This document shows, piece by piece, positions 17,163 through 58,953 of a stretch of 64,000 bases of DNA; the first letter of the stretch is position 1; the number at the start of each line of letters is the position of its first letter. The position numbers were made by a program, and so were the translations under genes. The notes under the pieces were generated by a model. That model ran no database searches. It saw only the letters and a list, made by a program, of their open reading frames with translations, and had not been told where the DNA came from. The DNA is from Escherichia phage JSE: sequence record EU863408. One strand, 5' to 3'.

Positions 17163-17191
17163 ATTATAGGGGATCGATGATCCCCTGTCAA
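17163..17191 (-). promoter_or_regulatory. PeSL-type early promoter with palindromic spacer
   Basis: TTGACA, spacer GGGGATCATCGATCCCC, TATAAT. Confidence 0.6.
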
Positions 17192-19297: not shown

Positions 19298-19326
19298 ATT
19301 ATAGGGGATCGGTGATCCCCTGTCAA
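19298..19326 (-). promoter_or_regulatory. PeSL-type early promoter
   Basis: TTGACA, spacer GGGGATCACCGATCCCC, TATAAT. Confidence 0.6.
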
Positions 19327-22777: not shown

Positions 22778-22806
22778 ATTATAGGGGATCACCGATCCCC
22801 TGTCAA
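22778..22806 (-). promoter_or_regulatory. PeSL-type early promoter
   Basis: TTGACA, spacer GGGGATCGGTGATCCCC, TATAAT. Confidence 0.6.
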
Positions 22807-24192: not shown

Positions 24193-24222
24193 ATTATAGG
24201 GGAGTTTAACCTCCCCTGTCAA
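24193..24222 (-). promoter_or_regulatory. PeSL-type early promoter
   Basis: TTGACA, spacer GGGGAGGTTAAACTCCCC, TATAAT. Confidence 0.55.
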
Positions 24223-24230
24223 CAACTTTT

Positions 24231-24542
24231 TTAAAGTTTTTCCATGATAACGGTCATAATTACATCTTCTGCGCGAGCGGTCAGATTATCAGCGTCAGCA
24301 TGTGGGCGGTTGGTTGTTACAGAGATAACACCGTTGCGCACTGGTTTGATATTGATATCAAGATGATCCGCGAAACGTTCGCCAGTTACAGAATGAATTT
24401 TGGTGTTAAATTCTTTTGCCAGTGCCTTGCGAACTTCACGAATCAGGATAGCGTTTTTCAGTTGGTTCTCCGCGCTCATGGTCTTCTGGGTGTTCATGGT
24501 TCCGTCGAAGTCAATCATTGGCAGCGTTACGATGTATTTCAT
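24231..24542 (-). CDS. hypothetical protein (103 aa), paralog of 20810-21097
   Basis: Shared motif NAI.IREVRKALAKEFN.K. Confidence 0.45.
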   Translation of the reverse strand: MKYIVTLPMIDFDGTMNTQKTMSAENQLKNAILIREVRKALAKEFNTKIHSVTGERFADHLDINIKPVRNGVISVTTNRPHADADNLTARAEDVIMTVIMEKL

Positions 24543-24587: not shown

Positions 24588-24616
24588 AGTATAGGGGATA
24601 CGTGATCCCCTGTCAA
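24588..24616 (-). promoter_or_regulatory. PeSL-type early promoter
   Basis: TTGACA, spacer GGGGATCACGTATCCCC, TATACT. Confidence 0.55.
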
Positions 24617-24629
24617 CAACTTTTTTGAA

Positions 24630-24974
24630 TTATTTTTTCATGAGCTTAATGGCTTCTTCCATAGCCAGCACATTTCGATAGTTAGGGTATCGTGTTAGAT
24701 CGTCATACATTCGCTTAAGGGTGGAAACTTCCTCAAACTCTGGGTTTTCTAGATACAGTTGAACAAATTGTTTCTCTACCATCTCGGCTTTTAGCTTGTC
24801 TGCTTGTTCCTGTTCATATGATTTCGTTGGACCCAACACCAACAAAATGATAAAGGTGATCAACGGGCTAATGATCAATGATAGGATAACATAACCGATA
24901 ACGCTACGGTTTAAACGGCTTGCGTACATGCCTACCAGGAAAACAAAAAGGATATAGATAAACAGAAAGAACAT
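24630..24974 (-). CDS. membrane protein (114 aa)
   Basis: Two N-terminal hydrophobic helices. Confidence 0.5.
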   Translation of the reverse strand: MFFLFIYILFVFLVGMYASRLNRSVIGYVILSLIISPLITFIILLVLGPTKSYEQEQADKLKAEMVEKQFVQLYLENPEFEEVSTLKRMYDDLTRYPNYRNVLAMEEAIKLMKK

Positions 24975-24981
24975 ATAATAG

Positions 24982-25455
24982 TTACTCCTTATTTTCGCGC
25001 TCGTACTTTTCGAAATAAAATTCTACTGGCTGGTCATGAATTGACAGCAAGCCAAAGCGTTTAGCCGCTCGCAATCCCATATTGCGCTGAATATACTTCT
25101 GGAAGTTCTCGCGTATACACTTACGCCAGTATTCTAAGCCCATACAGCTTTTATAAAGATTGCATTGTACACACGCCGGATTCATGTTATCAAGTATATC
25201 ATGTTCCGGTTTATGCATTCCTACGACCTTATACTTCCACGATCCATCATCATTACGGGCAATTCGTCCATTTTCATCATAGACTACCTTTGAGCGTCGC
25301 AATACTGGTTTGATGTGGTCTGCGTGCCAGCGATCCCCTAGTTCCTCGCCACAATAGGCACAACGTCCACCATATTTCATTTTCAGGATCTGGCGTTGCT
25401 CTTTCTTTGACAATTTTTTAGGTTTAGGGGCTTTCGCCCCTTCATTATCACACAT
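24982..25455 (-). CDS. HNH endonuclease
   Basis: HNH/zinc-finger motifs CAYCGE, WHADHIKP, NMNPACVQCN. Confidence 0.7.
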   Translation of the reverse strand: MCDNEGAKAPKPKKLSKKEQRQILKMKYGGRCAYCGEELGDRWHADHIKPVLRRSKVVYDENGRIARNDDGSWKYKVVGMHKPEHDILDNMNPACVQCNLYKSCMGLEYWRKCIRENFQKYIQRNMGLRAAKRFGLLSIHDQPVEFYFEKYERENKE

Positions 25456-26950
25456 CGAATACCTCTTTTACTGTATTTGCAGTGGTCTTGTCGTAGCGAA
25501 TACGTTTGATGATTGGGAGAAATAAAGAGAACTCCGGTTCATCTTCTTTACGTGATTTGCTGCGGATATACCCGTTGCATGTCATCTCAATGACTTTTCC
25601 AATCAGGTTATGACGGTCAGCCCATAACATTTCTCGGTCGAGTTCATTTCGACGATCGAACGGAATTACACGTTCAGTACCATCATCACCTTTTTCGGTT
25701 GTAGTGTCGGTTAATCCCGATCCGGTGTTAGTCATCATTCGTCCGCACGCACTACGGACAGTAAAACCGCCTACCTTATTGGGGTCTTTACTATGCGGAT
25801 ATACATCAACAATTTCCGCGTCGAAGTCAATCACTTCTTTAAATTTAACCTGATCTTTACTACGGCGATCTTCAAATACACCATGTAAATTTTTAAGGAT
25901 AATACCTTCTAAGCCCATGTTTACATAGCGATGATATACTTCGCGAGCTTCATCTATATTGTTAACTACAGTGTTTTCGATTATCTGAACACGAGGATCG
26001 TTAAGTTCTTCAACAATCTGTTTTAGTTCTTCGAATCGATCTTTATATTGCTTCGTTGCTTTCTCGTTTCCGTAATACACATCACGGTCGATAACATCCC
26101 AGACAGTGTAAACAATACATTGGGCTTCTTCTTTTGGAATAGTTCCTTTCAGTGATTTGTTGAGGATACCATTTACGGTCTGACGATCTGCAACAACGGA
26201 TTCTTTTACTGCTTCCGCTACTGGCGTTAATGGCATTTCCTCTTCTTCAAATATCCATGACAGAGTACCATCATAAACGCTTTCAACGAAGTTCTGCGCT
26301 GGTGTTTGCGAAAGGGTAGGCATATATACCAATTCCCCATCTAGAACAATTCCACGGCCTCGTAGACGCTCTAAAACAGCAAACAAATCATCCAGCCCCT
26401 GATAGGTATTACCTGAACGGGTATAGATTGCTAATGTTTCCCCGTCAATATCAGCCATCCCACGAGCGCCATCGCTTTTAAGTTGTGCATACGCCGGATA
26501 CTTGATATTAGCAATAGTCTTATCAGAACATGACGATGCAAGGTGACACGGTTGCTGGGGGATCAGTTTCTTCCATACCTTGTTTGCAGTGGTAGCTGAA
26601 CAGCCGCATTCCAGATCACGATTCAGGACCATCATTGCAACTTTAGCATCATCCTCTGACAAGCAAGTCAGAGTATCGGTAACTAGCTGTAATGCTGCAT
26701 TACCAGTTACTTGACGCGTGGCAAGTTTATTTTTAAAGACCTGTAATGCACCGGATAAAGACAATACAGACGAATAACGCGATGGTTTATCGTATTTCTT
26801 TACGCCAAACGTAACCTGTTTGCAATATGCCAGATAAAAACATTCTTTCAGTGTTTCATTGCTTGCAGATTCTTTCAGGATCTTTTCTTTCAGCGATGTT
26901 TTGTCTGTTGCTGCAAGCTGGTTAATGATATTAAGAATTGACATTTTCAC
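25448..26950 (-). CDS. 30: ATP-dependent DNA ligase gp30
   Basis: 500 aa; KxDG adenylation motif (QLKSDGARG); size and position as T4 ligase. Confidence 0.9.
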   Translation of the reverse strand: MKMSILNIINQLAATDKTSLKEKILKESASNETLKECFYLAYCKQVTFGVKKYDKPSRYSSVLSLSGALQVFKNKLATRQVTGNAALQLVTDTLTCLSEDDAKVAMMVLNRDLECGCSATTANKVWKKLIPQQPCHLASSCSDKTIANIKYPAYAQLKSDGARGMADIDGETLAIYTRSGNTYQGLDDLFAVLERLRGRGIVLDGELVYMPTLSQTPAQNFVESVYDGTLSWIFEEEEMPLTPVAEAVKESVVADRQTVNGILNKSLKGTIPKEEAQCIVYTVWDVIDRDVYYGNEKATKQYKDRFEELKQIVEELNDPRVQIIENTVVNNIDEAREVYHRYVNMGLEGIILKNLHGVFEDRRSKDQVKFKEVIDFDAEIVDVYPHSKDPNKVGGFTVRSACGRMMTNTGSGLTDTTTEKGDDGTERVIPFDRRNELDREMLWADRHNLIGKVIEMTCNGYIRSKSRKEDEPEFSLFLPIIKRIRYDKTTANTVKEVFDV

Positions 26951-31880: not shown

Positions 31881-32312
31881 CTAAAACTTTTTTTGTTGTT
31901 TTCTTTTGTTGACATAATTTGTGTTCCATTCTGGTTTAAATTTGGTGATCAAAACAGGTTCTTCGATATCGGCAGTGCTTATAATATCTTTACCCGTTGG
32001 ATTCTCGATGTACAACTCAAAGCATTGGCGGTAATAGAATGTTACTGTCTTACCTTCCTCTAGCGCCTTATGAATATTCTTACTCTTGCGAGTATCCGCT
32101 GTTGGTGTTTGTCTGTTAATGCTCGTCCGGTAATAATTGATCCGCTTTCTGAGATTAACAGTCTGACCAATGTATACCAGTTCATCATCAACCACAATAG
32201 CGTAAAGAACATTTAAACGGTTTTTCTGAGGCGGTAGAATCACATCACCATCTTTACACTCTAAACATGAATATTTAACGAATCCATAGTTTTCTATTAG
32301 CTCATTAATCAT
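31881..32312 (-). CDS. denA: endonuclease II (GIY-YIG family)
   Basis: Close match to T4 EndoII (VLYAIVVDDELVYIGQT, NLRKRINYYRT). Confidence 0.8.
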   Translation of the reverse strand: MINELIENYGFVKYSCLECKDGDVILPPQKNRLNVLYAIVVDDELVYIGQTVNLRKRINYYRTSINRQTPTADTRKSKNIHKALEEGKTVTFYYRQCFELYIENPTGKDIISTADIEEPVLITKFKPEWNTNYVNKRKQQKKF

Positions 32313-33439: not shown

Positions 33440-33916
33440 TTAATCATGACCGTGATTTGCAATATCCGCTCGTGTCGTGTCTTTGTGATTACCTACGTCA
33501 AAGACACGATAACCATTTTCACGAAGAACTTTAATCACTTCTGGGTTATCCTCAAAGACTCCGACAACTTCATCTTTATCAAAGGATTTAATTACCTCTA
33601 ATTTGATGTGATAGTCTTTACGGGAATCATTGCGACCTCTCATAAAGATTTTATCGAAACACACATCATTAGCGATCAACCATTCCACCGTTTCCATGTA
33701 AGCATGTGAACTTCGTCCGGTGAGGATGTAAATCAAATGCCCGTTGTCGGAAAGAGCATTGATAACACGGATTACATCGTAAATGGGGGAATCTCCCCCA
33801 CATGCCTTGTTATATTCGATCCATGACTCGACTTTATCAAGATTTTCGGTTGGCATCTTTGCTAGTCGATGTGTTGGATCTGTGATCGTAAAATCTAAAT
33901 CGACAAAATATATCAT
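33440..33916 (-). CDS. HAD-superfamily phosphatase-like protein
   Basis: N-terminal DxDxT motif (FVDLDFTIT); overlaps nrdB start. Confidence 0.45.
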   Translation of the reverse strand: MIYFVDLDFTITDPTHRLAKMPTENLDKVESWIEYNKACGGDSPIYDVIRVINALSDNGHLIYILTGRSSHAYMETVEWLIANDVCFDKIFMRGRNDSRKDYHIKLEVIKSFDKDEVVGVFEDNPEVIKVLRENGYRVFDVGNHKDTTRADIANHGHD

Positions 33917-35079
33917 AGATATTTCCCGAATCGGTTGTAGTCATCGTCTGTTAAATCGGTATTAACCTGAGACACCAGATACATAATCTCTACTTCCTGC
34001 GCTGCATTCTGCACTTCGTCAGAGTTTAACCACTTACGCATCCACGGTAAAGGATGACGACGAACACTAAACGGGCTTTTCAGTCCGGCAGCACGCATAC
34101 GGGAATCTGCCAGGTATTCTACATAGGTTTTCAGAATTTCCGGTGACAGGTTAGGAATTGCCCCCATTGCGAATAGGTGGTCTACCCATTCTTTTTCTTG
34201 CTCGACAACATCCAGAAAGATTTTCGTTGCTTCGCCTTCAAGTTCTTCCGCAATCTGTTTCCACTCATCACCATCAACCCCCGTTTGCCATTGACGAATA
34301 ATGTATTGTGTGCCTTTTAAGTGAAGTTGTTCATCACGCGCAATAAATTTCATGATCTTCGCGTTACCTTCCAGTAAACCACGTTCGGCAAAGCTGAAAG
34401 TACATGCAAAGGACACATAAAAACGAATTGCTTCCAGTGCGTTGACGCAGTGTGCACACAGATAAATCGAAGCCATCAGATCTCGTTTTGTATCTTCAAA
34501 AAATCTTCTTGCATCATCTAATGCTGTCTGGTCGTCTCGTTCTTCCCAATAGCGGAGATCTTCTTTTGCATTCTCATACTTACGAATCCAATAAAGAACA
34601 TCATCATAATATTTCCCGATAGATTCCGCTCGCTTCATGATAGCAGGGTTATCGATGATCTGGTCGAACTCACTAGCCGGATCAATGAAACAGTTACGCA
34701 TAATGTGTGTATAGCTTCGGCTATGAATCGTTTCGCTGAATGTCCATGTTTGCAACCATGTATCGAGAGTTGGATCAGATACAATTGGACCAAATGCTGC
34801 GGACGGTGCGCGACCTTGAATAGAATCAAGTAATGTCTGATACTTCAAGTTTTCAGTAAAGAAACGCTTTTCAACGTCACCCATATTAAGATATTGAATG
34901 CGGTCGGTTGCAAGTGAAATTTCTTCTGGACGCCAGAAAAATGACAGAGATTTTTCAATTAATTCTTCAAATACTTGATGACGCTGAATGTCATAACGAG
35001 CGATACCTAAACCGCTACCCAGAAACATCGGTTCATTCATAATATCAACGTGTTCACGATTAAATACCGTATTTCCCAT
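33913..35079 (-). CDS. nrdB: ribonucleotide reductase small subunit
   Basis: 388 aa; di-iron/tyrosyl radical signature region; uninterrupted (no intron). Confidence 0.9.
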   Translation of the reverse strand: MGNTVFNREHVDIMNEPMFLGSGLGIARYDIQRHQVFEELIEKSLSFFWRPEEISLATDRIQYLNMGDVEKRFFTENLKYQTLLDSIQGRAPSAAFGPIVSDPTLDTWLQTWTFSETIHSRSYTHIMRNCFIDPASEFDQIIDNPAIMKRAESIGKYYDDVLYWIRKYENAKEDLRYWEERDDQTALDDARRFFEDTKRDLMASIYLCAHCVNALEAIRFYVSFACTFSFAERGLLEGNAKIMKFIARDEQLHLKGTQYIIRQWQTGVDGDEWKQIAEELEGEATKIFLDVVEQEKEWVDHLFAMGAIPNLSPEILKTYVEYLADSRMRAAGLKSPFSVRRHPLPWMRKWLNSDEVQNAAQEVEIMYLVSQVNTDLTDDDYNRFGKYL

Positions 35080-35727
35080 TCACATATTCCTCATTTTACA
35101 GTTATCAAAGTGCCATCGTAGAGCATTGCCTTTATTGGTAATTTTACCGCAATGCGGACAAGGATCTGCCATTGTTGCTTCCTTTGTCCGTTGTGAAATC
35201 AGCTTTCTCATTTCCTCGCTATGTGGTATTCCTTTAGTTGGCGATGGTTTCCCAAACATAGGATTTTTACTTCCCATTCTAGCTTTTGAAATGTTTAACG
35301 CGTGCTCCTTTGTTTTTGGCTTACGCATTTTAGCTTTTGTCTCTTCTGATTTCAATACACCTTTCGAAGATTCGCTAATCTTTCTTCGCGTTTCTTCTTT
35401 CATCGGCTTGCCCTTTCTTTGTTCAGAGATAAGTACCCTAGCTTGTTCATATACCCTAGACGAAACAATATAATCTCTTTTATTGGTCTTCGCATTTTTT
35501 GCTAAACACATCATACCAAATGCTTGTGCCATAGGTCCACCATGAATTTTGGCCAGCAGATGATGAATCACGAAATGTTCTTTTGCTGTCAACTCAATCA
35601 GGTTATCAACTTCATCACCGCCACCCATAGATCGCGGTAAAATATGATGTGTTTCCTTATATCCTTCAACGGTTCCTCTGATCTTTGCTTTTTCTATGAT
35701 TGCGTCATGTAGTTTTTGTAAGTTCAT
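35080..35727 (-). CDS. HNH homing endonuclease (MobE-like position between nrdB and nrdA)
   Basis: HNH motif HHILPRS..NLIELTAKEH and NUMOD-like repeats; C-terminal CPHCG. Confidence 0.7.
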   Translation of the reverse strand: MNLQKLHDAIIEKAKIRGTVEGYKETHHILPRSMGGGDEVDNLIELTAKEHFVIHHLLAKIHGGPMAQAFGMMCLAKNAKTNKRDYIVSSRVYEQARVLISEQRKGKPMKEETRRKISESSKGVLKSEETKAKMRKPKTKEHALNISKARMGSKNPMFGKPSPTKGIPHSEEMRKLISQRTKEATMADPCPHCGKITNKGNALRWHFDNCKMRNM

Positions 35728-35796
35728 GAATTAATCCTCTTTTCTGTATACCATTATTTATCAGGTATCCAGAAGAAGGATTAATTCACCTCACTA

Positions 35797-35964
35797 TTAT
35801 CCGACAACCTCAAAACATTTATCATCAGGAAGAATAGCCCATTCTACGCCGTATTCATCCTCAACGTAGTAGCAAGTCCCATCATGTCGAGCATCATATT
35901 CATCACCGACAACAAAGCTATCAGCTAGCTCAAAATCTACAGCAACACATTTTAATTTGGTCAT
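35797..35964 (-). CDS. small hypothetical protein (55 aa from MTKLK)
   Basis: ORF with GAGGAT RBS downstream of a PeSL promoter. Confidence 0.35.
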   Translation of the reverse strand: MTKLKCVAVDFELADSFVVGDEYDARHDGTCYYVEDEYGVEWAILPDDKCFEVVG

Positions 35965-35995: not shown

Positions 35996-36024
35996 ATTAT
36001 AGCGGGGATTTCTCCCCGCGTCAA
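35996..36024 (-). promoter_or_regulatory. PeSL-type early promoter
   Basis: TTGACG, spacer CGGGGAGAAATCCCCGC, TATAAT. Confidence 0.5.
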
Positions 36025-36032
36025 CACTTATT

Positions 36033-38276
36033 TTACAGCTTGCAAGATGAGCACTCGCTAGCGTCTTCCGTACCATCTGCACCGTCGCGAACGTTCGCAT
36101 AATACAGGGTTTTCAGACCGTAATATTGAGCAAACAACATATCATCTAACACATCAGCAATATCGACTTTACCAGTCTTATAAGTGCTTGGATCGTATGA
36201 TGTATTGGAACTAATCGCCTGATCCACAAACTTCTGCATGATCGCTGCCAGTGTGAGATAAGGCTTGTTACCTTTCTTGATCAGTGTCCAAAGCAGGTCA
36301 ATAACATCAGCATTATTCTCTACGTTCGGAATAACCTGATTAAATTGCCCTTCTTTCGATCCTTTAACCGATACAATCCCGCGAGGCGGTTCAATACCGT
36401 TTGTGCTGTTAGATACCTGAGAAGACGACTCACAAGGCATCAGCGCCGACAGTGTACTGTTACGAATGCCATATTTTTTCAGGTCTTCGCGCAGTTCTTC
36501 CCAATCCATCTCATACACCGGATCAACCAGTTCATCTACTGTCTTTTTGTACCAGTCGATAGGAAGTTCACCGCGACCATAGCGTGTTTCGTGCATCAGT
36601 TCGCAAGCACCCTTCTCTTTAGCCAGTCGCACACTAGCCTTAATCAGAGCATATTGCAAGCGTTCAAACGTTTTATGCGTAAACTCGTTAGCGTCTTCAT
36701 ATGTGAAGAAATTATCTGCTAGATATGATGCAAAGTTAGTCACACCAACACCCAGAGAGCGACGTTTTTTGGCTGTCAGAGCTTGTTCTACAGGATAATC
36801 CTGATAATCTAACAGGTTGTCAAGTGCACGCACCATAACCATAGCAATGCGTTCTACTTCTTCCATATTTTCGATATCGAAATTACCTAAAACATATGCT
36901 GCCAAAGTACATAGGCTAATTTCTGAATCATCACGACCCATCGGTTTTGTAGGCAGAGCAATTTCACAACACAGGTTAGATTGTTTAATCGGTGCTACAT
37001 TACGAATAAACGCCCCGTGATTGTTCATGTTGTCTGTGAACGTTGGGTAGATTCGACCAGTGTTAAAACGTTCAATTGCCACCGCTAAAAACAGGTCTTC
37101 GGCTTTAACACGAGTTTTACGAACACTCGGATCTTTTTCCAGTTTTTCGTAAAGCTGGCGGAAACCTTCCTCGTCTCGGAAGTACAGATCCCACAACAAG
37201 CCACCCGCAACATCTGGACTAAACAGAGTAATGTAATCCCGTTTAAGGAATCGCTCTACCATCAGGTTATTAATCTGTACGCCGTAATCAAGATGACGAA
37301 TGCGGTTATCTTCCACCCCCTTATTGTTCTTTAACACAATCAGACTTTCAAACTCTAAATGCCATATTGGGTAATAGAGAGTCGCCGCCCCGCCACGAAT
37401 GCCGCCTTGTGAGCATGACTTAACGGCCGTCTGAAAATGTTTCCAGAATGGGATAACGCCAGTATGACGAACTTCACCATGCCCGATCTTAGATCCTTCC
37501 GCGCGAATCATGCCAGCGTTGATACCGATACCAGCACGCTTGCTAATATACTTGATGATTGCATTTGCTGTTTCGTTGATGCCCTGCAATGAGTCATCAC
37601 TTTCGATCACCACACACGAACTAAATTGGCGTGTTGGGGTACGCACACCTGCCATAATCGGAGTAGGTAGAGAGATTTGCTTATTCGCAACAGCATTATA
37701 AAAATCAATCACATGTTCAAGTCGATTTTCTGTCTCTTCTTGATGCAAGCACATACCGATCAGCATATACGCAAATTGTGGTGTTTCGATGATTTTCTTA
37801 GTGCTGCGATCCTGAACAAGATATTTCTCTTTTAACTGCATCGCACCAGCATAGGTCATTTTAAAATCAAGTTTATGGTCGATGAATTTCTCCAGATATT
37901 CCACTTCTTCATGGGAATACTTTTGCAGAATTTCGCGATCATATTTTCCGGTTGCAATATTACGCTCAATATGGCTGTAAAAATCAATCGGTTGGAATTG
38001 ACCGTATACTGATTTGCGAAGCGCGAACATTGCAAGGTTACTTGCTACATATTGATAATCGGGTGTTTCTACAGTAATGTTATCTGCTGCGACCTTAATC
38101 AATACTTTCTGGATATCGTTGGTAGACATACCTTCTGTCAGAAGTGGTTCAACCATATCAAACAATTCATATGGATCAACGTTATGACCTTCGGCTGCCG
38201 CTTCCAGAATTTTCATTACTTTTTCTTTTTCAAACGGAACAGTCAGACCGGAAGACTTAACAACATTTTTAATCAT
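36033..38276 (-). CDS. nrdA: ribonucleotide reductase large subunit
   Basis: 747 aa; ATP-cone N-terminus, catalytic Cys region and C-terminal Cys pair typical of class I RNR. Confidence 0.9.
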   Translation of the reverse strand: MIKNVVKSSGLTVPFEKEKVMKILEAAAEGHNVDPYELFDMVEPLLTEGMSTNDIQKVLIKVAADNITVETPDYQYVASNLAMFALRKSVYGQFQPIDFYSHIERNIATGKYDREILQKYSHEEVEYLEKFIDHKLDFKMTYAGAMQLKEKYLVQDRSTKKIIETPQFAYMLIGMCLHQEETENRLEHVIDFYNAVANKQISLPTPIMAGVRTPTRQFSSCVVIESDDSLQGINETANAIIKYISKRAGIGINAGMIRAEGSKIGHGEVRHTGVIPFWKHFQTAVKSCSQGGIRGGAATLYYPIWHLEFESLIVLKNNKGVEDNRIRHLDYGVQINNLMVERFLKRDYITLFSPDVAGGLLWDLYFRDEEGFRQLYEKLEKDPSVRKTRVKAEDLFLAVAIERFNTGRIYPTFTDNMNNHGAFIRNVAPIKQSNLCCEIALPTKPMGRDDSEISLCTLAAYVLGNFDIENMEEVERIAMVMVRALDNLLDYQDYPVEQALTAKKRRSLGVGVTNFASYLADNFFTYEDANEFTHKTFERLQYALIKASVRLAKEKGACELMHETRYGRGELPIDWYKKTVDELVDPVYEMDWEELREDLKKYGIRNSTLSALMPCESSSQVSNSTNGIEPPRGIVSVKGSKEGQFNQVIPNVENNADVIDLLWTLIKKGNKPYLTLAAIMQKFVDQAISSNTSYDPSTYKTGKVDIADVLDDMLFAQYYGLKTLYYANVRDGADGTEDASECSSCKL

Positions 38277-38343: not shown

Positions 38344-39567
38344 TTATACTGCCATTTGAGCGGTGATCGCTGGATGGCTTTGATAGTTGTGAATTTTAAA
38401 ATCTTTCGGAGTCTTTGTCAATACCTCATCTAAAGATTTAAATTCCGGCAACTCAATTATTGGTTTATCAAACGGAACACGGCTTAACTGTTCCATAACT
38501 TGATCAAAATGGTTTTTGTAAATGTGGCAATCCCCACACTGATAAACCAGTTCGCCAACTTCTAATCCGCAAATCTTCGCGATGATATGCGTTAACAGTG
38601 CATAGCTCGCTACGTTGAACGGATTCCCTAAAAAGAGATCATTCGAACGCATGAAAAATAAACAACTCAATTTGTTGTCGTTGGAAACATAAAACTGTAC
38701 CATCGGATGACATACACCTAACACAGCATTATGCGTTTCCTGTACGTTCCATGAATCAATGATAATACGACGACTATATGGATCATTCTTGATCATGTCA
38801 ATAACTTTTTGTAACTGGTCTTCCCAAATCTTCGGGCGATAGACATATTCTTCATCGTCTTTAGTGCTTGATGTGTCTACGTCCATACTAACAAACATCG
38901 TGGTATCCGGTGCTATAATATCCCCACCCAGATAATCACTATCAAGCAGATAACCGAAATAACCATCATCTACCCATTCCTGGAATCCCCACAAGCAATA
39001 TGCATCATTAACAAAATTAGATTGAGTCTTCCAGTGGTCTGCTACCAGAATATAATCAAACTCTTCATAACGCATACCACGCCAGATAGCACATAAACGG
39101 TCTTCTGTTTCATTGGTTGGTGTAAAGTCTTCTACCCACGGGTGCTTAAATGTATGTGTATATTTGCTCTTAACGCGCTTAATTTTGATTTCACCGTGTG
39201 GATGAATCGGTTTTCGTCGCCATGCCATACCATACATATTACCGACATTATAACCATTGAATCGCAAGGGATTCTTTTCTTTCATATCAAGACAGTTGCC
39301 GCGCCAAATATCAAAGGCTTCCTCGTCAAACTTGCCGCGTGTAATTTCCTGTAAGCGACGGCGGTCAAGTGATCCCTCCATAAACCATAGCAATTCGCCA
39401 ATTACAGAGGCTGTAGCCATCTTTTTAGTGGTCAGTAAGGGGAAACCCTTGCTTAAATCAATTCGCATTTCTGCACCGAATTTAGAGAGCGTACCTACCC
39501 CAGTTCGGTCTTCACGAGGCCAGCCATTATCAAGAACATCACGCAATAGTTTCAAATATTCTTTCAT
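38344..39567 (-). CDS. td: thymidylate synthase with a large in-frame insertion
   Basis: ThyA motifs (DRTGVGT, FPLLTTKK, CHPMVQFYV, LFLGNPFNVASYALL) interrupted by an extra segment of about 130 aa between YGMAWRR and QLQKVIDMIK. Confidence 0.8.
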   Translation of the reverse strand: MKEYLKLLRDVLDNGWPREDRTGVGTLSKFGAEMRIDLSKGFPLLTTKKMATASVIGELLWFMEGSLDRRRLQEITRGKFDEEAFDIWRGNCLDMKEKNPLRFNGYNVGNMYGMAWRRKPIHPHGEIKIKRVKSKYTHTFKHPWVEDFTPTNETEDRLCAIWRGMRYEEFDYILVADHWKTQSNFVNDAYCLWGFQEWVDDGYFGYLLDSDYLGGDIIAPDTTMFVSMDVDTSSTKDDEEYVYRPKIWEDQLQKVIDMIKNDPYSRRIIIDSWNVQETHNAVLGVCHPMVQFYVSNDNKLSCLFFMRSNDLFLGNPFNVASYALLTHIIAKICGLEVGELVYQCGDCHIYKNHFDQVMEQLSRVPFDKPIIELPEFKSLDEVLTKTPKDFKIHNYQSHPAITAQMAV

Positions 39568-58924: not shown

Positions 58925-58953
58925 AGTATAGGGGATCGCCGATCCCCTGTCAA
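58925..58953 (-). promoter_or_regulatory. PeSL-type early promoter
   Basis: TTGACA, spacer GGGGATCGGCGATCCCC, TATACT. Confidence 0.55.

Follow-up and report, generated by a model that had tools for sequence, protein, structure and literature searches.

MobE, encoded at the nrdA/nrdB junction of T4, is a classic case of a homing endonuclease in this position. On nrdB of phage T2, MobE-dependent nicks map to nucleotides 122 to 126; the polymorphic region of that gene spans nucleotides 114 to 131, and its codon 42 is AAG in T2 as in every phage that lacks mobE (PMC2790892). A block of T-even nrdB coding for FFWRPEE was proposed to be the DNA-binding site of the enzyme (PMC2790892). Only a nick in vivo was demonstrated for T4 MobE, and the authors left an indirect role possible; deletion of the HNH motif in T4 abolished both nicking and high-frequency inheritance (PMC2790892). 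The T4 gene is promoterless, overlaps the nrdA stop codon and contains an intrinsic terminator near the 5′ end of its ORF (PMC2790892, PMC2988022). For I-TevI, I-TevII, I-TevIII, segB and mobE of phage Aeh1, translation is prevented on read-through transcripts of the early and middle periods but permitted on late transcripts (PMC2988022). JSE has already been credited with two mob-like genes for HNH homing endonucleases by Petrov et al. (PMC2993671, Table 5), who list one “other HNH” for RB49 and one for phi1.

We analyzed a stretch of 64,000 nucleotides (the window; record EU863408) from Escherichia phage JSE, a member of Krischvirus, the RB49-like T4 relatives of the Straboviridae. A first-pass annotation of its sequence had taken two HNH proteins, one between nrdB and nrdA and the other at the 3′ end of the DNA ligase gene, to be free-standing homing endonucleases. 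We consider it highly probable that the two differ in nature, the first (HNH 1) being encoded by a MobE-family homing endonuclease gene and the second (HNH 2) being a resident, genus-wide nuclease, which is co-translated with the ligase and probably acts as a nicking enzyme. Population comparisons were built on GenBank records, with 57 Krischvirus records that are 97 to 98% identical to the window region; searches of IMG/VR with nrdB and ligase yielded two Krischvirus contigs only. The features of the first locus are as follows.

36033..38276, minus strand: nrdA, 747 aa, upstream neighbor of HNH 1 (ORF and domain search)
35996..36024, minus strand: early-type promoter with a stem-loop between −35 and −10 (TTGACGCGGGGAGAAATCCCCGCTATAAT; 11/12 match to the sigma-70 consensus, pattern search)
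35797..35964, minus strand: small ORF of 55 aa, RB49p233 homologue, between nrdA and the insert described below (phrog_16302, alignment)
35080..35727, minus strand: HNH 1, mobE-like gene for a free-standing HNH homing endonuclease, 215 aa (ORF, Pfam, PHROGs)
33913..35079, minus strand: nrdB, 388 aa, host and predicted target gene of HNH 1 (ORF and domain search)

The order on the minus strand is thus nrdA, promoter with its stem-loop, 55-aa ORF, a 52-nt leader, HNH 1 and nrdB, and the stop codon of HNH 1 runs into the nrdB ATG with no gap (TGAATG). These coordinates, together with the NUMOD3 match given below, agree with the 215-aa HNH ORF with NUMOD-like repeats that had been noticed between nrdB and nrdA. 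The early-type promoter is the likely source of read-through transcripts into the HNH 1 gene. Two mutually similar small ORFs of RB49, p232 and p231, are missing from the window, a difference of 342 nt. By pattern search, the window contains seven promoter stem-loop cassettes.

HNH 1 matched the Pfam NUMOD3 model over two stretches (E 9e-10) and phrog_655, “homing endonuclease” (E 1e-55), and scored 16 bits against the generic Pfam HNH model, below the cut-off of 21.4. The protein comprises an N-terminal HNH domain (H27/H28, N42, H51), NUMOD3 repeats at about residues 100 to 180 and a C-terminal CPHC...H...C zinc finger. Sequence searches against solved structures returned marginal HNH-motif matches only, for HNH 1 as for HNH 2. 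The first-pass annotation had proposed that missing catalytic His-Asn-His residues would refute its reading; HNH 1 has them, since in alignments with solved HNH domains and with MobE proteins H27-H28, N42 and H51/H55 take the matching positions. It had also recognized the position of HNH 1 as that of MobE, and to this can be added full-length homology: in tblastn, MobE of T6 (Tequatrovirus, annotated mobE) is 51% identical to HNH 1 over 214 of its 215 residues. The full-length MobE matches, which range from 51 to 54% identity, come from T6, KM16 (Moonvirus, 54%) and the Acinetobacter phage Berthold (Lazarusvirus), and in all three mobE occupies the nrdA/nrdB junction and adjoins the start of nrdB. 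The T4 RefSeq record divides this protein between mobE (141 aa) and nrdB.1 (83 aa), two ORFs whose products are 46% and 57% identical to HNH 1.

Three stretches stand out as conserved in the MobE alignment: the HNH core ETHHI.PR..GGSD..(D/E)NL..LT..EHF..H, the NUMOD3 stretch MRKPKT.EH..NI, and the C-terminal zinc finger CPHCGK...NKGNALRWH.DNC, which is kept across genera. HNH 1 is identical to ACL78186.1, “Homing endonuclease” of Escherichia phage JSE, and is thus already known as an annotated member of the well-studied MobE family. Its ORF is intact in all copies, i.e., in six GenBank carriers and the window. Among these copies 41 codons vary, 33 of them by synonymous changes only, a codon pattern that shows purifying selection on the HNH 1 gene. 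Cleavage activity is predicted from these sequence features.

Comparison of the nrdA/nrdB junction with that of relatives devoid of the gene, a check proposed in the first-pass annotation, revealed empty sites in 51 of the 57 Krischvirus records. The HNH 1 gene is present in the other six (FL15, AV108, PTE-Eco09, phiS, SSG23 and SFHK24), with at least 97.7% identity. In RB49 and the other non-carriers the small ORFs run straight to nrdB, leaving a precise empty site, and the alignment delimits the insertion.

35068..35779, minus strand: 712-nt insert relative to RB49 (alignment of the window, AV108, PTE-Eco09 and RB49)

The RB49 junction reads ...GTGAGGTGAATTAAT, GAGC, GTATTTAAC..., and in the window the four nucleotides GAGC are swapped for the 712-nt insert, which consists of the 52-nt leader, the 648-nt ORF and 12 nt with a new nrdB start (ATGGGAAATACG). 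Because the insert ends in this new start, the N terminus of NrdB is MGNT in place of MS. With the insert in place, the Shine-Dalgarno sequence of nrdB (GAGGA, 35088-35092) falls within the HNH 1 ORF, at its 3′ end. As the insert brings both a new Shine-Dalgarno sequence and a new start codon, nrdB expression would be preserved.

The sequence of nrdB next to the insert also sets carriers apart from non-carriers.

34947..35067, minus strand: divergent nrdB 5′ tract, a putative co-conversion tract always found with the HNH 1 gene (fixed differences)

We contrasted six carrier with six non-carrier sequences over 3.2 kb, which included 600 nt of nrdA, the intergenic region and nrdB. All 14 fixed differences between the two groups fall at nrdB +21 to +133, with none elsewhere in the 3.2 kb (the 600 nt of nrdA, the intergenic region and the last 1 kb of nrdB). 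From +13 to +140, carriers differ from each other by 0 to 3 nt and from non-carriers by 15 to 19 nt. The densest cluster of fixed differences sits on the codons homologous to nucleotides 114 to 131 of T2 nrdB, which take in codon 42 and the nick site at nucleotides 122 to 126. On their nrdA and nrdB flanks, in contrast, the carriers are scattered: the flanks of SSG23 are nearest to the non-carriers ECD7 and IMGVR_033703, and those of the window to the non-carriers FL04 and Sf20. Such flanks show the carriers to be polyphyletic in distribution. Since the carriers have a common tract and dissimilar flanks, the element and about 135 nt of nrdB appear to move as a unit between backgrounds, and this apparent joint movement of the HNH 1 gene and the tract is what homing predicts.

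Independent carrier lineages are few, so that a single ancient import, with ordinary recombination afterwards, is possible. Under a rival reading, HNH 1 would be a passive passenger with an inactive nuclease that entered once from a diverged phage, through illegitimate or cassette recombination, and was reshuffled or deleted later by homologous recombination. RB49-type genomes are indeed known mosaics with promoter stem-loop cassettes such as the seven found here, and other small ORFs nearby come and go as well. We nevertheless find such a passenger improbable, because the nrdB side of the insert has no promoter stem-loop, the fixed differences are confined to 113 nt beside the insert with their peak at the homologue of the MobE nick site, the ORF is intact and under apparent purifying selection in every copy, and the element occurs on unrelated flanking haplotypes. 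Homing, the reading that we prefer, makes a prediction about the codons at that peak.

34945..34962, minus strand: predicted MobE target in its immune form, codons L40-L45, TTA ATT GAA AAA TCT CTG (T2 homology)
34921..34941, minus strand: FFWRPEE-coding block adjoining the target (codon table)

We compiled a codon table that spans 45 nrdB loci. In all Krischvirus and T-even nrdB genes shown, the amino acids of the FFWRPEE block are identical and its codons differ by synonymous changes only. At and beside the predicted target, Krischvirus non-carriers read CTG ATC GAA AAG CAA TTG TCA TTT TTC TGG and carriers read TTA ATT GAA AAA TCT CTG TCA TTT TTC TGG. At the two codons of the Lys-Gln pair, AAG CAR is the reading in all six mobE-lacking Krischvirus alleles and in 28 of the 34 other mobE-lacking nrdB loci that have the motif of this site. 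Outside the Krischvirus carriers, AAA TCT was found only in T6, itself a carrier, among the loci compared. Where CAA is replaced by TCT, none of the bases of the codon is retained although the genomes are otherwise 97 to 98% identical, and this indicates import rather than point mutation. The exact MobE target in Krischvirus nrdB is a prediction by homology, and its alleles, together with the tract, display what is expected of the family: a target polymorphism that would be protective, and probable co-conversion.

A tentative extension, possible but on balance doubtful, is that the Tequatrovirus and Krischvirus MobE proteins, about 51% identical, recognize the same Lys-Gln codons of nrdB, immediately upstream of the FFWRPEE block, and that both genera escape via AAA TCT (Lys-Ser). 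The AAA TCT allele is not universal among carriers, since KM16, which has a mobE homologue, keeps AAG CAG. If the extension is true, homing into a coding sequence that hardly varies carried the MobE family across genera, and the non-carrier target of T6 MobE could be cut by the JSE enzyme, and vice versa.

The codon data also bear on the caveat of Wilson and Edgell for T4 MobE, whose activity in vitro could not be shown (PMC2790892). The MobE-like protein might act mainly in another capacity, as a regulator of nrdB expression or as a helper of another nuclease, with its spread as a by-product; that the insert rewires the nrdB translation start would fit such a role. This is highly improbable in our view, as the HNH residues are conserved across four genera, nicking and high-frequency inheritance were both lost upon deletion of the HNH motif in T4 (PMC2790892), and the carrier changes at the nick-site codons are those that target immunity predicts.

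The leader and the start of the HNH 1 gene are also predicted to form a structure that would bear on expression of this gene.

35718..35794, minus strand: leader hairpin, 19 bp (RNA fold)

In this hairpin, the old nrdB Shine-Dalgarno and translation-start sequence (GTGAGGTGAATTAATCC..., GAGGTGAATTAATCC...) pairs with the Shine-Dalgarno sequence and AUG of the mobE-like gene (...GGATTAATTCATG). Its predicted folding energy is −32.1 kcal/mol (z −5.6), and none of 200 shuffled sequences was as stable; the six GenBank carriers retain the hairpin, with energies of −28 to −33 kcal/mol. Within the loop, at 35755-35762, is GATAAATA, a 7/8 match to the T4 late promoter box that is present as a single copy in the window. 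The sequence TATAAATA showed no enrichment in the window (5 occurrences versus 5.7 expected). From its match and position, we infer that GATAAATA may serve as a late promoter. No terminator-like site was found inside the HNH 1 ORF. As both this internal terminator and the overlap with nrdA are absent, regulation of HNH 1 would differ from that of T4 mobE. We treated T4-style expression as a T-even feature that is not required for membership in the MobE family.

A plausible course of events can be proposed. A carrier and a non-carrier phage would co-infect one cell, where the enzyme would bind the conserved FFWRPEE-coding block in the nrdB gene of the non-carrier and nick or cut within a few bases on its upstream side, close to the AAG codon for Lys (codon 41 of RB49 nrdB, codon 42 of T2). 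Repair on the carrier template would transfer the 712-nt insert and, with it, about 135 nt of the 5′ part of nrdB in its carrier form. The carrier's own nrdB would be protected because its codons are GAA AAA TCT CTG and not GAA AAG CAA TTG. On read-through transcripts, the 19-bp hairpin would bury the Shine-Dalgarno sequence and AUG, so that expression looks restricted, and the late-promoter-like box in the loop could start shorter, translatable transcripts.

The same junction harbors a different gene in another Krischvirus. Phage G37-3 has an ORF of 179 aa with HNH_3 and AP2 domains, accompanied by its own divergent nrdB 5′ tract. This ORF is unrelated in sequence to the MobE-like protein and is absent from the window. 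Its presence indicates that the nrdA/nrdB junction is contested by different endonuclease genes in Krischvirus. In T-even phages, hef reportedly replaces mobE at this junction, as Sandegren et al. are said to have described in 2005. G37-3 resembles this HNH-AP2 or hef case, as it holds an alternative HNH-AP2 gene at the mobE site.

As the first-pass annotation had stated, the group I introns of T4 are absent: neither nrdB nor td is interrupted, and in a scan of the whole window no Rfam model, those for group I introns among them, attained its gathering score. A large in-frame insertion between conserved blocks brings the td product to 407 aa; td of RB49 is comparable in length (1233 nt). We rejected an intron or intein as the explanation of this insertion, given the single continuous ORF and the lack of an Rfam match; it lies in a region where solved thymidylate synthases vary in length (264-aa versus 316-aa enzymes). 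A GIY-YIG ORF at 31881-32312 was likewise considered as a gene for a homing endonuclease and rejected, since it is denA, which encodes endonuclease II and which none of the 57 relatives lacks.

We then compared the second HNH gene and its neighbor in the same manner.

24982..25455, minus strand: HNH 2, stand-alone HNH/zinc nuclease, 157 aa (ORF, Pfam, PHROGs)
25448..26950, minus strand: ATP-dependent DNA ligase (gene 30), 500 aa (ORF, domain search)

The ligase gene shares its last 8 nt, stop codon included, with the beginning of the HNH 2 gene (ATGTGTGA). HNH 2 matched the Pfam HNH model PF01844 with 27 bits (cut-off 21.4) and phrog_2118, “HNH endonuclease” (E 3e-54), and it is identical to ACL78168.1 in the JSE series and AAQ15441.1 in the RB49 series. 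Among 41 aligned sequences, residues C32, C35, D46, H47, N90, C95, C98, N99 and K102 are invariant. Both the HNH motif and the overlap with the ligase 3′ end had been pointed out correctly in the first-pass annotation; the homing character that it assigned to HNH 2 was not supported by the refuting condition that it had itself set, conservation of the ORF at its position in all relatives with no empty sites, as the gene is at the ligase junction in 57 of 57 Krischvirus records, with at least 96.8% amino-acid identity, and none of these 57 records has an empty site. A metagenomic relative, in which the ligase is 71% and the HNH protein 70% identical, keeps the start/stop overlap. Pairwise comparisons yielded 2 to 10 synonymous and 0 to 2 non-synonymous codon changes in HNH 2, a pattern like that of the ligase gene and one that is indicative of purifying selection. 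A 114-aa membrane ORF just downstream of HNH 2 (24630-24974) is polymorphic, being present in 20 of the 57 records.

HNH 2 could still home as a free-standing endonuclease, having become fixed by a sweep in the sampled Krischvirus lineage, with gene 30 of relatives that lack it as its target. It does have an HNH catalytic core, and its start/stop overlap with a conserved replication gene is shared by several T4 homing endonuclease genes (PMC2988022); Petrov et al. (PMC2993671) listed an “other HNH” in RB49 and phi1, the equation of which with HNH 2 is an assumption, and the downstream 114-aa ORF is polymorphic. We hold this to be unlikely. Against it stand the uniform presence and high identity in the genus, the codon changes, nearly all of which are synonymous, and the distant relative, where overlap is maintained while HNH protein and ligase have diverged about equally. 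The affinities of HNH 2 argue in the same direction. Among the matches listed, all phages other than Krischvirus are records of 12 to 68 kb and are not of the T4 type. Next in relatedness to HNH 2, at about 44% identity, come short HNH proteins from small siphoviruses and prophages, likewise stand-alone; one of these, a 44%-identical homologue in Bas79, is encoded three genes upstream of the large terminase gene.

An AlphaFold model of HNH 2 (pLDDT 91.6) had no match at E 0.001 in a fold search against solved structures. The best match, a weak one, was Gme HNH (4H9D), a prophage nicking enzyme (E 0.037, TM 0.31/0.48), and it too counts against a homing role. The idea that HNH 2 is the equivalent of endonuclease VII was dropped, as T4 endonuclease VII ranked 20th with a probability of 0.13. 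Judged by its distribution and substitutions, HNH 2 is in our view a resident nuclease that is fixed throughout the genus and not demonstrably mobile. That HNH 2 and the ligase form a functional nick-and-seal pair is a weaker possibility.

The present finding at the nrdA/nrdB junction is mostly confirmation, and its details are incremental. The natural contrast between Krischvirus carriers and non-carriers points to the very nrdB codons that were mapped experimentally in T2. Modest additions are the same putatively protective allele in T6, the predicted hairpin-style control of the Aeh1 and I-TevI kind, and the rival HNH-AP2 gene of G37-3. Crosses between JSE and RB49 would offer a ready system for target recognition by MobE, which has so far been resistant to in vitro work. 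For annotation, HNH 2 shows that a motif by itself is insufficient to call a ligase-adjacent gene a homing endonuclease.

HNH 2 compares best with the HNH nicking endonucleases of small phages and prophages, which often adjoin terminase genes (Gme HNH, 4H9D; Xu et al. 2013, PMC3592412). It resembles Gme HNH in size, in the CxxC...DH...N...CxxCN core and, with the reservation that the match is weak, in fold class. Unlike enzymes of that type, HNH 2 follows the ligase gene and has no terminase gene nearby, and an insertion of 35 aa and a conserved helical part at the C terminus set it apart from Gme HNH. T4-type phages package their DNA by a headful mechanism.

HNH 1 has the layout of T4 and T6 MobE, with HNH, NUMOD3 and a CCHC zinc finger (Wilson and Edgell 2009, PMC2790892), and its gene is likewise located directly 5′ of nrdB and patchy among relatives. 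It differs from these proteins by about 49% divergence in sequence and by its genus, Krischvirus, and unlike in T4 there is no nrdB intron to mobilize in trans. In contrast to T4 mobE, the HNH 1 gene does not touch nrdA, as a promoter and a small ORF lie in between, and it is preceded by a 52-nt leader and a Shine-Dalgarno sequence of its own. With mobE of Aeh1, I-TevI, I-TevII, I-TevIII and segB it shares a predicted hairpin that would bury the Shine-Dalgarno sequence and AUG, with a late-promoter-like box inside; unlike Aeh1 mobE, which splits nrdA, it lies between intact genes. Finally, as with T6 mobE, the carrier allele reads AAA TCT at the codons where T2 nrdB is nicked.

At the MobE site, the junction directly 5′ of nrdB, Escherichia phage vB_EcoM_G37-3 (MK327941.1) harbors a gene of its own:

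L058:1577-2116 (G37-3 locus), HNH_3 + AP2 ORF of 179 aa

This ORF is unrelated to the mobE-like gene and occupies the identical junction. The 5′ tract of nrdB in G37-3 differs at 15 to 20 of 128 nt from the Krischvirus alleles that carry the mobE-like gene and from the empty alleles alike. The G37-3 ORF is thus a second endonuclease gene in competition for the MobE site. In the T4 RefSeq record (NC_000866, L059:4217-4917), the MobE reading frame is annotated in two parts, mobE with 141 aa and nrdB.1 with 83 aa; combined, these two ORFs can be aligned to the full-length proteins of T6 and the window.

The interval between nrdA and nrdB also varies independently of the endonuclease insert. In RB49, PTE-Eco09, phiS and SSG23 it includes an additional pair of small ORFs, similar to each other, which are missing from the window, AV108 and FL15, a difference of 342 nt. 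A terminator-like element was scored by the scan in the FFWRPEE-coding sequence. These features are as follows:

L001:2090-2430 (RB49 nrdA/nrdB locus), RB49p232 (57 aa) and RB49p231 (55 aa); corresponding point in the window, 35795-35800
34921-34941, minus strand, FFWRPEE-coding sequence TTTTTCTGGCGTCCAGAAGAA with a perfect 6-bp inverted repeat, TTCTGG/CCAGAA

Silent changes disrupt this repeat in some relatives, and it is thus probably incidental to coding.

Two other genes of the window were considered:

31881-32312, minus strand, GIY-YIG ORF, denA (endonuclease II)
38344-39567, minus strand, thymidylate synthase (td), 407 aa

The reading of the former as a seg-type homing endonuclease was rejected, as it is denA, present in all 57 Krischvirus relatives. 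Thymidylate synthase contains an insertion between conserved blocks, at roughly residues 87 to 249, far longer than in any matched solved thymidylate synthase; RB49 td is of comparable length (1233 nt). The insertion is in-frame and is not an intron.

Ligase was found at 95% identity or more in 58 phage-collection records and its junction with HNH 2, the HNH gene overlapping its 3′ end, in only 57; the remaining record may be incomplete or truncated at this junction. HNH 2 is followed immediately downstream by another ORF:

24630-24974, minus strand, 114-aa ORF matching phrog_25625 (function unknown)

Its N-terminal half is hydrophobic and, as judged by eye, resembles two membrane helices. Only 20 of the 57 Krischvirus records contain it; in ECD7 it is cleanly missing, and the final HNH 2 codons differ. 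Downstream of the ligase region, a 103-aa ORF of RB49 contains a tandem duplication of 18 nt (CGAACGTTTCGCGGATCA twice; L004:about 680-720); the duplication is absent from the window (about 24370-24400) and from ECD7.

Finally, the window contains seven sigma-70-type promoters:

17163-17191, 19298-19326, 22778-22806, 24193-24222, 24588-24616, 35996-36024 and 58925-58953, all minus strand

In all seven, a GC stem-loop separates the −35 and −10 elements (TTGACAGGGGA...TCCCCTATAAT), against a chance expectation of none in the window. In phage Whisky, the absence of one gene coincides exactly with the interval between two of these promoters. Promoter-early stem-loop cassettes have been reported for RB49-type phages, and the seven window promoters look like such cassettes.
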